Below, in pieces: positions 30,794-39,980 of a stretch of 64,000 nt of DNA. Below the pieces are notes generated by a model that was given only the letters and a program-made list of their open reading frames with translations, did not search any database and was not told the origin of the DNA. The DNA lies in the sequence record PZ445523.1, one strand, 5' to 3'. Each line of letters begins with the position of its first letter. Position 1 is the stretch's first letter. Made by a program: the position numbers and the translations under genes. Origin of the DNA: a phage.

Positions 30794-31267
30794 TTATTTG
30801 AATGATTTAACGTACTGAATAGAACCTTTACTATTCACAAAGGCAATTTTACCATTTTTGTTATACATGGTAGCAGTACGCTGATAGCCATAAGTTTGTT
30901 TACCAGATTGATAACCAACTAATGCAAAATTATCTTCGCCCATTTTATTCTGCTTAGCGCGGATACGTTCATGACCGTGCGCCATAAGAACCTTAGCGTC
31001 GCCAGTTGCAATGGATCTACGAGTTTTTTCATCTTCAACTGTATTAACAAAGTCGTCAAATGAATCAAATTTAGCATGAGATTTATTATACAGTTTTCCA
31101 TCTACTGCATAATTATATCCCTGTACATCCATCTCAACTTCTGTACCATCATCCAATACAGCAGTGATTTTTTGACCTTTTTTAAATTTCAAAAGATCAG
31201 TAAAAGATTCAGCAATAATTTGAGAATTAATAGCTGCTTCAGTAATAAATTCTTGATATGTTTTCAT
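30794..31267 (-). CDS. Internal-protein-like capsid-targeted protein (157 aa)
   Basis: N-terminal capsid-targeting leader MKTYQEFITE followed by AA, as in T4 IPI/IPII/IPIII; payload unrecognised. Confidence 0.6.
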   Translation of the reverse strand: MKTYQEFITEAAINSQIIAESFTDLLKFKKGQKITAVLDDGTEVEMDVQGYNYAVDGKLYNKSHAKFDSFDDFVNTVEDEKTRRSIATGDAKVLMAHGHERIRAKQNKMGEDNFALVGYQSGKQTYGYQRTATMYNKNGKIAFVNSKGSIQYVKSFK

Positions 31268-31276
31268 ATGTTTCCT

Positions 31277-31693
31277 TTAAATGTAAATATTTTTACCGTA
31301 ATACTTGTACCAATGTGGTTTCATTAAAATTTTTTCATCAAGTCGTTGTTGACTCAATTTAATAGCTGATTTGCATGGATTATAATCATTTTTCCATTCT
31401 ACTGGAATATCGCTGATGTCAGGAACTTCAGTATCTTTTATACTGAACCCGCGTTTTAAGCATTCCGTTATAATGTCTGATTGACGCTTTCGCAAAAATT
31501 CTAACTTATCGTAAAAGAAAGTAACATGACCAGAACCTAAAATAAACTCGGAAGATATTTTAAAATCTTTAACCCGCTTACCATTTGCCACATGTTTACG
31601 AACTATACCAAAAACACGCGGCAATTCACGGTATTCTGCGATTAAATGTTGATCAGCAAGTTCAGATACTAAAGTCAAATTAATACGAGTCAT
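31277..31693 (-). CDS. denV: Endonuclease V (pyrimidine-dimer DNA glycosylase)
   Basis: 138 aa; about 75 percent identical to recalled T4 endo V ([17 protein letters not shown]..). Confidence 0.93.
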
Positions 31694-31716
31694 TTTATCC
31701 CTCCAAGTAACTGTGA

Positions 31717-31748
31717 ATATACTATCACAATTCTAGGAGAAAGTAAAC
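31717..31748 (-). promoter_or_regulatory. Early promoter upstream of denV
   Basis: Minus-strand GTTTAC, spacer, TAGTAT/TATATT, then GGAGGG and the denV ATG. Confidence 0.45.
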
Positions 31749-31752
31749 AACT

Positions 31753-32247
31753 TTATAGATTTTTATACGCATCCCAAGTGCCAGTCCTAAACGTAGCGAT
31801 GACTCGTTTTGCGCGATTAGGTGTTTGATTATACCATCTACTTTTAGCTAAGTTAACTGCTGCTTCATCCCAGCGTTTTTGTTGAAGCATACGTAAAGAA
31901 TTAGTAAATCCTGCTACGCCGGTTTCTCCCATTTGGAAGACCATGTTAATCAATGCACAGCGGCGAACAGCATCAAGAGAATCATAAACTGGTTTTAATT
32001 TAGCATTTCTCAAAATTCCACGAACAGCAGCATCAACATCCTGATTAAAGAGTTTTTCAGCCTCATCTTTTGTAATTACACCATTGCAATTACGCCCAAT
32101 AGCTTTATCTAATTCAGATTTAGCAACACTTAGTGATGGACTTTTAGTAAGCAAATGACCAATGCCAATAGTGTAATAACCTTCTGTATCTTTATAGATT
32201 TTAAGTCTAAGACCTTCATCTATACGTAACATTTCAAATATATTCAT
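31753..32247 (-). CDS. e: Endolysin (T4 lysozyme)
   Basis: 164 aa; near-identical to T4 lysozyme ([38 protein letters not shown]...). Confidence 0.97.
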
Positions 32248-32260
32248 AATACCTCCTAAG

Positions 32261-32281
32261 TATTTATAGAAGGTATTTATA
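32261..32281 (-). promoter_or_regulatory. Two tandem late promoters (TATAAATA) upstream of e
   Basis: Minus-strand TATAAATA at about 32261-32268 and 32274-32281, followed by AGGAGG and the e ATG. Confidence 0.6.
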
Positions 32282-32283
32282 AA

Positions 32284-32739
32284 TTAAAAGAGGTTGTTCA
32301 TTATTCGGTAAAGCGAAGGACCCATCACATATTGCCACTGAGTACGAGGAATAAGAGCAAAAGCGTCCATCTCTGGAATCATAACGCCATCTTTATTTTC
32401 AAAATAAGACTCGCAGCGGCAATTTCTAAACATCTCATGCTCTACTGGAATCATATAATAAAATAACTGTAGGTCTTTATTACTAGAATATTTAAATACA
32501 CCTAGGTCTTCTAGAAGGTCTGGATTATAATTGCTAAAACCGGTCTCTTCTAAGCATTCTCTTTTTGCAGCTTCCAGTGCATTCAAATCAGAACTTTCTA
32601 CACGCCCCTTTGGAATATCCCAGCGATGTGCCATCATTCCAGGCTTACGAGAACCAGTAACCCGACCCATAAATAAATCTTTATCTTCTGTCATAAAGAT
32701 AATACCAGCTGATAATGTTTTCATTTTAATTTCCTGCAT
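32284..32739 (-). CDS. nudE: Nudix hydrolase NudE
   Basis: Nudix box GRVESSDLNALEAAKRECLEETG; position next to e as in T4. Confidence 0.85.
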   Translation of the reverse strand: MQEIKMKTLSAGIIFMTEDKDLFMGRVTGSRKPGMMAHRWDIPKGRVESSDLNALEAAKRECLEETGFSNYNPDLLEDLGVFKYSSNKDLQLFYYMIPVEHEMFRNCRCESYFENKDGVMIPEMDAFALIPRTQWQYVMGPSLYRIMNNLF

Positions 32740-33209
32740 TCAGCGATAAAGCTATTTAAATTTTGGGTATATTTCTTTTCATCAAAAATCTTTTGTTGTC
32801 TGCGTAAACGCCATGGCATTTCAATGAACACGCACCATATTCCAGATAATATTGCTGCTGTCAAAATATTAACAAGCATAATTAAAAGAATCCAATCTCC
32901 TGTTCTGCCTATTGGACTTTCTCCAAAGAAGCAAAATACGAATGATGACACAGGAAGACTAATGATATACCACAGAATCATAATCTTATTTGTAAACCAA
33001 TCAGCATTTGTTAACTTAGCGCGACCGTTTTGAATACATACGAACTTATCATCTGTTATAGTAGATGGCTTAGCTGCTTGATATCCCATTCTAAACTCCC
33101 TAATCAACAAATTTTTCATATCTTCGGAACAACCATTCCAGTCAACTCTATCAACTGAAATGCCATCATCCCCATCATCTAAATCATACCAGCGAGTTTT
33201 TAAAATCAT
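32721..33209 (-). CDS. Membrane protein (162 aa), tandem paralog 1
   Basis: Two or three transmembrane helices; C-terminal FIAECRKLK motif shared with the next two ORFs. Confidence 0.5.
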   Translation of the reverse strand: MILKTRWYDLDDGDDGISVDRVDWNGCSEDMKNLLIREFRMGYQAAKPSTITDDKFVCIQNGRAKLTNADWFTNKIMILWYIISLPVSSFVFCFFGESPIGRTGDWILLIMLVNILTAAILSGIWCVFIEMPWRLRRQQKIFDEKKYTQNLNSFIAECRKLK

Positions 33210-38674: not shown

Positions 38675-38676
38675 TA

Positions 38677-39087
38677 TCAGCCTCTATCAACGATAGTATG
38701 AGTATGGGCATTTACGATTTGCCACCAGTCGAAACGATTGGAACCATAATCTGGTTTATTTTCATTTTCTTTAATGATATCACGCAGTTTATCTTCTGTT
38801 TCAGCATACGCAATTAAATCATCATATCCACCACAAGGATAATAATTATCACCTGCGAATAAAAGAAAATTTACCTTAGATGGATTTACGTAATAATGGT
38901 CTTTAGGATATTTAGTTCCTCTCCAATCAGTTACTTCAACATAACGATAAGAAAATCCATTTTTACTTTCAATCCAACTCCACGCTTCAAAAGGAGTATT
39001 AAAAACTTTATCAGGTATTAAATTACCTTCAAAATGAGAAGGATTTGCATAATCCCCGGCATAAACATAATATTCGTTAATACTCAT
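38677..39087 (-). CDS. Hypothetical protein (136 aa)
   Basis: ORF on the early strand; aromatic-rich. Confidence 0.5.
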   Translation of the reverse strand: MSINEYYVYAGDYANPSHFEGNLIPDKVFNTPFEAWSWIESKNGFSYRYVEVTDWRGTKYPKDHYYVNPSKVNFLLFAGDNYYPCGGYDDLIAYAETEDKLRDIIKENENKPDYGSNRFDWWQIVNAHTHTIVDRG

Positions 39088-39273
39088 TTATTCACCTTTA
39101 GAAATTTTATCCATAACGATAGCGATTAAACCAATTAAAAATGCTACTACAAGTGAAAACACATTTTCTGCTGTAGTCAGTAATCCGCATATAAATCCAA
39201 CAAACATTGAAAAACTAAAAGCGGAAGCAGAAATTGCAATAGCAACATTTCGAATTAATTCACAGCGTTTCAT
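39088..39273 (-). CDS. Small membrane protein (61 aa)
   Basis: Two hydrophobic helices; downstream of an early promoter. Confidence 0.5.
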   Translation of the reverse strand: MKRCELIRNVAIAISASAFSFSMFVGFICGLLTTAENVFSLVVAFLIGLIAIVMDKISKGE

Positions 39274-39300
39274 TTTATTCTCCTCAGTAGTTGATAGGGT

Positions 39301-39331
39301 AATAATATCACCACCCTATCTAAAAGTAAAC
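39301..39331 (-). promoter_or_regulatory. Early promoter
   Basis: Minus-strand GTTTAC, spacer, TATTAT-like -10; then GAGGAG and ATG. Confidence 0.45.
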
Positions 39332-39341
39332 GGTTTATAAA

Positions 39342-39650
39342 CTATTTTATTCCGCGTGATGCAATTGTGTTCTGTCGTTTAACGCCAGTTTGTTTAAAGT
39401 CATGATTGTCGATTTGATCGGTACGAGCAACTCCGAATGATGATTTGATCTTAGCTTTAGATCCTTTAGTTATAGAAATAAACATCTCGGAAGCCCCTTT
39501 CTTAAAGTCCGAGGCGATTACTTCAACGCCGTTCTTAGCAAGTGACTTCAGAATTGCCTCCGCATACTCATCGTCAAGACTCGCCTGAGTATTAATAACG
39601 AATGTCTTTGGTGCAGCAGCTTCATTGATAAATTCTTTAAATGTTTTCAT
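39342..39650 (-). CDS. Internal-protein-like capsid-targeted protein (102 aa)
   Basis: Leader MKTFKEFINE followed by AAA; own copy of the duplicated promoter/leader module. Confidence 0.6.
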   Translation of the reverse strand: MKTFKEFINEAAAPKTFVINTQASLDDEYAEAILKSLAKNGVEVIASDFKKGASEMFISITKGSKAKIKSSFGVARTDQIDNHDFKQTGVKRQNTIASRGIK

Positions 39651-39679
39651 TTTATTTTCCTAATTAATTTTGATAGGGT

Positions 39680-39711
39680 AATAGTATCACTACTAAAACC
39701 CTGTGTAAACA
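39680..39711 (-). promoter_or_regulatory. Early promoter (module copy A)
   Basis: Minus-strand GTTTACA, 17-nt spacer, TACTAT; near-identical to the copy at 40010..40041. Confidence 0.5.
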
Positions 39712-39722
39712 ACTTTGTGAAA

Positions 39723-39980
39723 TTATTTTAAATCTTCTAATCGTTTCTTCATCTTAGAACCGTTCTTAGCGATTTCGCCTGCATCAGAGCATAATGCTAA
39801 AAGCGCTTTAACTTTAGTTTGGTCTCCTTTAAAAGATGAAGGATCAACAGCAGCAGCAAGTTCTTTAATACGAGAGAAAAGACGCTCAGCTTCAGCTAAA
39901 GCCATTCCAAGCTTTACTTCCATACCATGAGAAGATTCAGTAATAGTAGTTTTTGTAGCAAACTCTTTGAAAGTTTTCAT
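39723..39980 (-). CDS. Internal-protein-like capsid-targeted protein (85 aa)
   Basis: Leader MKTFKEFATKTTITE; occupies the T4 ipI position next to 57B, but the payload differs from recalled IPI. Confidence 0.55.
   Translation of the reverse strand: MKTFKEFATKTTITESSHGMEVKLGMALAEAERLFSRIKELAAAVDPSSFKGDQTKVKALLALCSDAGEIAKNGSKMKKRLEDLK

Follow-up and report, generated by a model that had tools for sequence, protein, structure and literature searches.

Four open reading frames (ORFs 1-4) in a 64-kb stretch of phage DNA, the window analysed here, begin with the same short N-terminal sequence, MKT(Y/F)xxF, with a hydrophobic-x-Glu site after it (Table 1). The source genome is a Tequatrovirus (T4-like). 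Translation confirmed the coordinates of all four ORFs and placed them on the minus strand; the plus-strand translations at the same positions contained many stops. A six-frame search of the 64 kb for M-K-T-(Y/F/W)-x-x-F at any methionine returned these four ORFs only, in agreement with the original prediction that four genes carry an internal-protein leader. A leader profile was trained on nine known internal proteins (Ips), with ORF2 left out, and applied to 162 ORFs. ORFs 1-4 took ranks 1-4, in the case of ORF1, ORF3 and ORF4 by construction because their T2 and T6 copies sat in the training set, while ORF2 ranked fourth as the weakest match of the four (8.1 versus about 20 bits). The next ORF scored 0.9 bits and the background was -14.0 +/- 7.3.

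Table 1. Features of the internal-protein genes and their surroundings (positions in the 64-kb window; a slash within a leader marks the predicted cleavage site)
Feature	Position	Strand	Description
ORF1 = Ip4 (IpIV)	30794..31267	-	157 aa, leader MKTYQEFITE/A
denV (endonuclease V)	31277..31693	-	between e and Ip4 here
e-denV spacer	31694..31752	-	59 bp with early promoter/stem-loop cassette (GTTTAC...TAGTAT), from junction comparison
Two late-promoter cores TATAAATA	32261..32281	-	upstream of e
36-nt direct repeat, downstream copy	36055..36090	.	closes the 535-bp ORF2 cassette
ORF2	36095..36556	-	153 aa, leader MKTYAQFLMTE/A, candidate internal protein
Late-promoter core TATAAATA, perfect	36585..36592	-	36 nt upstream of the ORF2 start codon
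36-nt direct repeat, upstream copy	36590..36625	.	rnaC 3' terminator hairpin AGCCCCGACCGAAAGGTTGGGGCT, then T run
ORF3 = Ip7	39342..39650	-	102 aa, leader MKTFKEFINE/A
Ip7 cassette (early promoter/stem-loop + SD + leader)	39630..39738	-	copy 1 of 109-nt repeat
ORF4 = Ip5	39723..39980	-	85 aa, leader MKTFKEFATKTTITE/S
Ip5 cassette (early promoter/stem-loop + SD + leader)	39960..40068	-	copy 2 of 109-nt repeat
57B	40053..40511	-	Pfam Acb1 (anti-CBASS) family PF23474, E = 7e-60

[quoted passage not shown] The T4 leaders (NC_000866) are MKTFKEFTSTTTPVSTITE/A in IPI and MKTYQEFIAE/A in both IPII and IPIII, and the DNA upstream of the ORFs was also homologous to the T4 ip genes. The prohead protease gp21 recognizes the motif L/I-X-E and cuts after the Glu (PMC9026906). 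Canonical sites were found in ORF1 (ITE/A), ORF3 (INE/A) and ORF4 (ITE/S); the putative site in ORF2, M-T-E, is non-canonical, and the ORF2 relatives checked have L-x-E (LNE, LTE, LAE, LIE or LKE). The predicted mature forms of the four are 7.5-16.5 kDa, with a pI of about 9.14-9.65 (ORF2, about 15.7 kDa and pI 9.4), and the pI of T4 IPI*-IPIII* is 9.02-9.65. The window ends inside gene 17, and gene 21 and the scaffold genes lie beyond it. To our knowledge, gp21 and the scaffold core are encoded by all Tequatroviruses.

ORF1 exactly matched T2 IpIV/Ip4 (100% identity) and was assigned to PHROG 3155, 'internal virion protein' (E = 6e-102), and to Pfam DUF7412. A second conserved site, IAE/S, was present at residue 20, and both E10 and E20 were invariant across the Ip4 family. 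The gene occupied the slot between e and vs.8 that holds ipIII and ipII in T4, but lay across denV from them. Its 5' UTR ended in the same ~26 nt as that of T4 ipII, and the 3' end of denV was joined to this ipII-type 5' UTR, giving the endonuclease the C-terminus GKNIYI* rather than the GKAIYA* of T4. The size originally given for the denV-e gap was right, but the gap is not empty, as had been supposed; the cassette inside it is also present ahead of T4 ipIII and T2 Ip4.

ORF3 was an exact match to a protein named 'Ip7', with 98% identity to the T2 copy, and belonged to PHROG 2667, 'internal head protein'. ORF4 (PHROG 3499) exactly matched Ip5 of T6 (UniRef Q38630, Q38630_BPT6) and was 99% identical to the T2 copy. 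ORF4 was located at the ipI position of T4, directly downstream of 57B, with ORF3 as its tandem neighbour, and the annotation of the T6 record reads 'Ip5 ... replaces ipI'. The two copies of the 109-nt repeat that precede these genes were 88% identical, and copy 1 resembled the region upstream of T4 ipI. The gene immediately upstream of the Ip5/Ip7 pair, 57B, is a member of the Acb1 anti-CBASS family.

The T4 gene map on which the original prediction relied (ipI by 57B, ipII and ipIII between denV and e) was correct. The conclusion that the four genes stand at positions unlike those of T4 applied to ORF2, which is at a new site, and to ORF1 insofar as it has crossed denV; it did not apply to ORF4 and ORF3, which share the ipI locus, and even ORF1 has not left the e-to-vs.8 slot. 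The term novel could not be sustained for ORF1, ORF3 and ORF4, which are already named Ip4, Ip7 and Ip5 and belong to the two classical ip loci. Later papers credit Repoila et al. 1994 with the description of polymorphic internal proteins in the T-even phages.

ORF2 was located between e.8 and rnaC, outside both described ip loci (57B-trna.4 and the e/denV region) and at a site without a T4 counterpart. Residence in one of these loci describes the Ip family but has no bearing on mechanism. Its family is PHROG 2280, 'unknown function', and the protein was 'hypothetical' in every source checked. T2, T4 and T6 have one copy of the rnaC hairpin repeat and lack ORF2, and the arrangement in the window points to a self-contained module of 535 bp inserted at the end of rnaC, with the order terminator hairpin, late promoter, SD, gene and terminator hairpin. 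The late promoter was conserved across genera; its position was unchanged in JK1, fD1 and Klebsiella phage Mineola, and its sequence had one mismatch in a48. In the structure model of ORF2, a disordered leader preceded two helical domains, and the protein has a linker rich in Pro, Lys and Ala.

No perfect late promoter was found within 300 nt of ORF1, ORF3 or ORF4, and the promoters nearby were of the early type only, with TATAAATA cores at 32261/32274 and 41094. Late expression of these three genes would accordingly come from read-through; the cores upstream of e, for example, could allow late read-through into denV and Ip4.

ORF2 has homologues in some 500 sequenced phages of the T-even-like group as well as in Klebsiella-phage genera. 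In LC-MS/MS of purified particles of phage fD1, the homologues of Ip4 (g129, 100% identical to ORF1), of ORF2 (g140) and of the ipI-locus Ip (g146) were all detected, and the neighbouring proteins g128, g139 and g145 were not detected in the same data set. The fD1 particle proteome was unselective, with 10 of the 28 genes in g114-g141, including denV, lysozyme and NudE, passing a strict threshold, and cleavage-site peptides were not reported.

The presence of the ORF2 homologue in these particles could thus be contamination, as would be expected if ORF2 were not an internal protein but a late cytoplasmic or assembly-accessory protein whose leader likeness came from shared ancestry of the 5' cassette or from chance. 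Several observations are in keeping with this alternative, 1) the leader deviates, with A-Q instead of Q/K-E at positions 5-6 and M at P3 of the putative site, 2) ORF2 matched no Ip PHROG, leader included, and is outside both known ip loci, and 3) its sequence and position are more conserved across genera than those of the fast-swapping Ips. However, the leader and the L-x-E site were kept in relatives down to ~35% identity (Klebsiella phages), and distant relatives in which the C-terminal domain had been replaced still had the leader and L-x-E followed by a small residue. Moreover, ORF2 was the sole ORF in the window, other than the known Ips, to stand out on the leader profile, its mature form would be small and basic, and it has its own conserved late promoter, the predicted timing of which suits prohead assembly. 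A non-internal role for ORF2 is considered rather unlikely.

The original description of the payloads as unrecognizable proved accurate, in that comparison with Pfam, NCBIfam and the sequences of solved structures gave no credible match for any of the four, and the models of ORF2 and Ip4, the two payloads modelled, had no significant fold match in the PDB. No payload homology to IPI*, IPII* or IPIII* was found; the PHROG families differ and the cross-matches covered the leader region only.

The reading we favour, with a probability of about 0.7, is that all four ORFs encode prohead-targeted internal proteins that are packaged, trimmed and injected and that act against restriction; we infer each of these properties for ORFs 1-4. 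The short N-terminal capsid-targeting sequence would bring each protein to the scaffolding core while the prohead assembles, and there gp21 would remove the leader by cleaving after the Glu of the hydrophobic-x-Glu site. The small, basic mature protein would remain among the packaged DNA, enter with it at the next infection and most likely neutralize a host nuclease directed against glucosyl-hydroxymethylcytosine DNA. If T4 Ip1-3 are taken as the model, the nuclease would be a particular type IV restriction enzyme of the GmrSD type.

The analogy with the T4 proteins rests on the work of Silas et al. 2025 (PMC12373910), who found a different GmrSD to be inhibited by each of Ip1, Ip2 and Ip3 and suggested the same kind of activity for every protein encoded at the two Ip loci. 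The suggestion that the present genes are candidate novel anti-defence effectors had therefore already been published for the Ips in general, and holds as a new proposal for ORF2, an unannotated candidate. In plating experiments, T2 and T6 were restricted by the GmrSD of ECOR17 and ECOR21 (PMC12373910). T2 has Ip4, Ip5 and Ip7 and T6 has Ip5 and Ip6, and it follows that Ip4-Ip7 block neither variant.

This restriction of T2 and T6 would also be expected if ORFs 1-4 were injected anti-defence effectors directed against something other than type IV restriction enzymes of the GmrSD type. No relationship is seen among the folds of the payloads, and the neighbouring 57B belongs to a family that counters CBASS, which is not a restriction system. 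Nevertheless, the targets so far identified for Ips are all GmrSD enzymes, whose diversity is large enough for many further variants. A target of another kind is judged unlikely. That the four are packaged yet serve mainly a structural or physical purpose (head morphogenesis, DNA condensation, charge neutralization or ejection) is improbable; T4 IPIII- and triple-IP mutants do show head-assembly aberrations with more polyheads, gp22, the scaffold protein, and the T4 IPs are recovered together on purification (PMC9026906), all payloads are basic, the ORF2 linker has a suitable composition and none of the four resembles a known inhibitor, but specific GmrSD targets are now known for 3/3 T4 IPs, the dispensability of Ip genes and their swapping as cassettes among close relatives fit arms-race cargo better than structural need, and the heads of T2, T4 and T6, which lack ORF2, are not known to be affected by its absence.

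Within the preferred reading of ORFs 1-4 as packaged and injected proteins, ORF2 may represent an unrecognized Ip family at a third locus, a packaged, gp21-trimmed and injected inhibitor of a defence that T2, T4 and T6 cannot counter. This more specific proposal is tentative and is put at somewhat below even odds.

Of all phage proteins, the internal proteins arrive first in the host cytoplasm. Since the three T4 Ips were found in 2025 to be specific GmrSD inhibitors, the remaining Ip families, roughly a dozen, are prime anti-defence candidates. The Ip4, Ip5 and Ip7 genes described here add nothing beyond T2, and the four genes represent mostly known biology, with one plausible new internal-protein family at a third locus. 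The Ip literature consulted describes two loci only, and ORF2 suggests that the Ip catalogue is incomplete because it was built around model phages that do not have this gene. ORF2 carries modest weight as a common, unannotated and easily testable candidate, and, with an N-terminal domain that is conserved and a C-terminal one that can be exchanged, it could also illustrate the diversification of such effectors.

The closest known counterparts are Ip4 and Ip7 of T2 and Ip5 of T6 and T2; ORF1, ORF3 and ORF4 are these proteins, and the loci and promoter cassettes are alike. The only difference, and not one of substance, is that denV lies between e and Ip4 here, whereas there is no denV gene in this slot of T2. 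T4 IPI (Ip1), which in its mature form IPI* is an injected inhibitor of the GmrSD from E. coli CT596, resembles ORF4 and ORF3 in its MKTFKEF leader type, its locus downstream of 57B and its upstream early promoter/stem-loop cassette, and its propeptide ends in ITE, but the payloads belong to different families (PHROG 4363 versus 3499 and 2667). Similarly, T4 IPII and IPIII (Ip2 and Ip3), inhibitors of the GmrSD from ECOR21 and ECOR17, respectively, share the MKTYQEFIxE/A leader with ORF1 and differ from it in family (PHROG 7857 and 5341 versus 3155/DUF7412) and in their order relative to denV, which is reversed. T4 Alt is likewise targeted to the prohead, trimmed at I-T-E and injected (PMC5694885), and is thus, like the Ips, a packaged head protein processed by gp21; unlike them, it is an enzyme of 68 kDa whose propeptide has 6 residues, it is also cleaved at the C-terminus, and it has no MKTYxEF leader. 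The organization of the genes recalls promoter-early stem-loop (PeSL) shuffling (Arbiol 2010; Comeau 2014, PMC4122927), in which a repeated unit flanks the swapped genes, as the repeated promoter/stem-loop unit does here at the ipI locus and in the e-vs.8 slot. The ORF2 cassette departs from this pattern in that two copies of a terminator hairpin enclose it and its promoter is of the late rather than the early type.

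The window is a segment of a Tequatrovirus (T4-like) genome that reads in the direction of the T4 map, from the tk/vs region to gene 17, and every gene in the flagged region is on the minus strand. The original prediction of four ORFs at the coordinates in the table below, each beginning with a leader that resembles the capsid-targeting leader of the T4 internal proteins (Ip), was borne out far beyond chance, since a six-frame search of the 64 kb found the motif M-K-T-[YFW]-x-x-F in these four ORFs and nowhere else. The leaders read from the T4 genome (NC_000866) were MKTFKEFTSTTTPVSTITE/A for IPI and MKTYQEFIAE/A for IPII and IPIII, where the slash marks the predicted gp21 cleavage site. 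The capsid-targeting sequence sends internal proteins into the scaffold core and gp21 cuts after the Glu of L/I-X-E (PMC9026906, PMC5694885); neither gene 21 nor the scaffold genes are included in the window. Two further PHROGs of "unknown function", 3966 and 15565, matched ORF1, ORF3 and T4 ipII and ipIII over the leader region alone (residues 1 to about 20-30) and may be further unannotated leader-bearing families, like that of ORF2. A literature search with the leader string returned vaccine-engineering papers only.

Coordinates of the leader-bearing ORFs and associated features; a slash marks the predicted gp21 cleavage site
Feature	Coordinates	Strand	Length	N-terminus
ORF1	30794..31267	-	157 aa	MKTYQEFITE/A
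ORF2	36095..36556	-	153 aa	MKTYAQFLMTE/A
ORF3	39342..39650	-	102 aa	MKTFKEFINE/A
ORF4	39723..39980	-	85 aa	MKTFKEFATKTTITE/S
denV 3' end fused to ipII-type 5' UTR	31277-31300; 31268-31276			
Direct repeats flanking the ORF2 insertion	36590-36625; 36055-36090		36 nt	
TATAAATA upstream of ORF2	36585..36592			
tRNA cluster	36937-38289	-		
segB	37017..37682			
57B	40053-40511	-		

The payloads, the proteins left after leader removal, had been put forward as candidate novel injected effectors, but three of them already have names. Exact-sequence look-up identified ORF1 as "IpIV internal head protein" (Ip4; the UniRef representative is from T2), present on 459 contigs, ORF3 as "Ip7" and ORF4 as "Ip5" (UniRef Q38630, phage T6), and public records name them accordingly; the Ip names and definitions used here are those of later papers and the databases. 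Direct comparison with the T2 copies gave 100%, 98% and 99% identity for ORF1, ORF3 and ORF4, respectively, and ORF4 was 100% identical to T6 Ip5. All three belong to PHROGs labelled internal head or virion protein (3155, 2667 and 3499, in the same order), and Ip4 corresponds to Pfam DUF7412. For the most part the finding correctly retraced established T-even biology, namely polymorphic, cassette-shuffled internal proteins, here with the T2 repertoire.

The genes had also been placed at positions unlike those in T4, which is true of ORF2, at a third locus, but not of ORF1, ORF3 and ORF4, which occupy the two classical ip loci. The slot that runs from e to the vs.8 side holds ORF1. Comparison of the junctions gave the arrangements e-[ipIII-ipII-denV] in T4, e-[Ip4] in T2 and e-[denV-Ip4] in the window, all three with the same promoter cassette after e and with the slot closed by a near-identical distal sequence (GGGAACAACCTGGACC...). 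The supposedly empty gap between denV and e is a 59-bp spacer that consists of this cassette. The Ip4 5' UTR shares its final ~26 nt with that of T4 ipII, and this stretch overlaps the end of denV. Fused to this ipII-type 5' UTR (AAAAATATTTACATTTAAAGGAAACAT), denV consequently ends in GKNIYI rather than the GKAIYA of T4, and the junction looks like a recombination scar of cassette shuffling. In T6 (MH550421, locus 2495-3512), regB abuts e directly; denV, ipII/ipIII and Ip4 are all missing along with vs.3-vs.8, a far more extensive deletion at this hotspot.

ORF2 is the unannotated member of the set. It belongs to PHROG 2280, "unknown function", and had no match in Pfam or NCBIfam. By tblastn it matched 512 phage records, and all 40 sampled rows, like the named cluster members, were "hypothetical", "phage protein" or unannotated; a deep search of 1.84 billion representatives returned only 9 relatives, all phage-like. 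ORF2 is absent from T4, T2 and T6, a plausible reason why it escaped classical internal-protein biochemistry, and Silas et al. 2025 speak only of "the two Ip loci" (PMC12373910). The longer gap between e.8 and the tRNA genes in T2 was considered as a site for an ORF2 remnant and rejected, the extra DNA being an unrelated ORF. Just downstream of tRNA-Arg and before rnaD, T2 has an additional ORF of 351 nt (AP018813, locus 9003-9353), where the window has none. The tRNA cluster of the window has eight genes (Arg, Met, Thr, Ser, Pro, Gly, Leu and Gln), with the GIY-YIG homing endonuclease gene segB inserted after tRNA-Arg; the T4 set differs in having Ile and lacking Met, and that of T2 differs in also having Asn and Tyr.

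ORF2 lies within a 535-bp insertion between 36-nt direct repeats (97% identical), each a copy of the rnaC 3' terminator hairpin that is present once in T4. Read along the coding strand, a hairpin comes first, followed by TATAAATA (36 nt ahead of the ATG), a Shine-Dalgarno sequence, ORF2 and the second hairpin. TATAAATA is the T4 late-promoter core; from base composition, we estimate a chance of roughly 1% that one would occur in the correct orientation in a 100-nt stretch. A perfect copy directly follows the hairpin in JK1, fD1 and Klebsiella phage Mineola (genus Jiaodavirus), a48 is one mismatch off, and Marfavirus P545 has CATAAATA further upstream.

When nine known Ips, but not ORF2, were used to train a leader profile, ORF2 ranked 4th of 162 ORFs, directly behind the three known Ips, with 8.1 bits (next, 0.9; background, -14.0 +/- 7.3). 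Leader variants in the ORF2 family were MKTYNEFLNESVLTE/A, MKSYAQFLNEAVLNE/A, MLEYSEFLKELFCE/A, MKSYAEFLTE/Q, MLKFNEFLAE/G, MKFKEFLAE/A and MITFNDILAE/G. An aromatic residue at position 3-4, Phe/Ile-Leu and an L-x-E site were kept down to ~35% identity, and in the Klebsiella-phage branch the C-terminal domain was replaced while the leader features were kept. The weak point is the ORF2 site in the window itself, which is M-T-E as opposed to the canonical L/I-x-E.

LC-MS/MS of purified Yersinia phage fD1 scored g140, g129 and g146 as particle-associated at the strict threshold (PMC8309999, Table S3). The ORF2 homolog is g140 (80% identity by tblastn, same position), while g129 is 100% identical to Ip4 and g146 is the ipI-locus Ip. 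Their neighbours g128, g139 and g145 were not among the products so scored; however, the preparation was not selective, with denV, lysozyme and NudE among the 10 of 28 products in g114-g141 that passed (PMC8309999), and the detection lends weak support to packaging. The e.5 and e.6 homologs, g136 and g137, were scored as particle-associated as well, which could reflect either contamination or a real association. The fPS-phage paper contained no virion proteomics. We put the probability that ORF2 is a true internal protein, packaged and processed by gp21, at about 0.6.

The predicted mature ORF2 protein is 15.7 kDa with a pI of 9.4. In its AlphaFold model (pLDDT 78) the leader is disordered, residues 14-67 form a confident three-helix N-domain, and a Pro/Lys/Ala-rich linker is followed by a helical hairpin; a fold search gave nothing significant in the PDB and, among the viral models of BFVD, only its own uncharacterized relatives. 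The Ip4 model (pLDDT 77, pTM 0.72) is an alpha/beta fold whose confidence is low over residues 10-19; it had no significant PDB match. Ferritin, Tudor and glycosylase fold matches were rejected (E > 0.3, rmsd > 10 Å). The DUF7412 family alignment shows two invariant glutamates, Glu10 and Glu20, both within a hydrophobic-x-E context, which suggests a two-step propeptide for Ip4 and, together with the low-confidence stretch of the model, a mature protein that starts at residue 21, not 11.

The payloads were indeed unrecognisable: neither Pfam nor NCBIfam nor the solved-structure sequences gave a credible match. Searches of the four proteins against Pfam and NCBIfam gave only DUF7412 for Ip4; the sub-threshold matches to Mur ligase, AbiJ and a curli inhibitor were rejected as chance. 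The best match among solved-structure sequences, a designed repeat protein (E = 6e-4), was also rejected, as no stretch passed alone. Ip1, Ip2 and Ip3 (T4 IPI, IPII and IPIII) each inhibit one variant of the type IV restriction enzyme GmrSD with no cross-protection, and GmrSD variants have been proposed as the targets of every protein encoded at the two Ip loci (Silas et al. 2025, PMC12373910); the anti-defence role originally suggested was thus already in print. T2 and T6 are restricted by the GmrSD of ECOR17 and ECOR21 (Silas et al. 2025, PMC12373910), yet T2 carries Ip4, Ip5 and Ip7 and T6 carries Ip5 and Ip6, from which we infer that Ip4-Ip7 do not block these two enzymes. That ORF2 is not only packaged and processed but also an injected anti-defence effector is a tentative reading, somewhat against the odds.

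The part worth carrying forward is ORF2, whose family is widespread and unannotated and combines an Ip-type leader with a conserved late promoter of its own and a distinctive cassette with a duplicated terminator at a third locus.

At the ipI locus, ORF4 is at the exact T4 ipI position, immediately downstream of 57B, and ORF3 is its tandem neighbour. The payloads of ORF1, ORF3 and ORF4 are unrelated to those of T4, where IPI, IPII and IPIII fall in different families (PHROGs 4363, 7857 and 5341). Directly upstream of the Ip5/Ip7 pair, 57B matches the Pfam Acb1 (anti-CBASS) family (E = 7e-60), so that the locus is in anti-defence company. Both ORF4 and ORF3 are preceded by a 109-nt unit made up of an early promoter and its stem-loop, a Shine-Dalgarno sequence and the leader start (88% identity, 330 bp apart), and a third, partial copy of this promoter/stem-loop unit precedes trna.4. 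The repeated unit has the architecture of the promoter-early stem-loop (PeSL) cassettes of T4-like phages, for which the IP locus is the prototype (PMC4122927).
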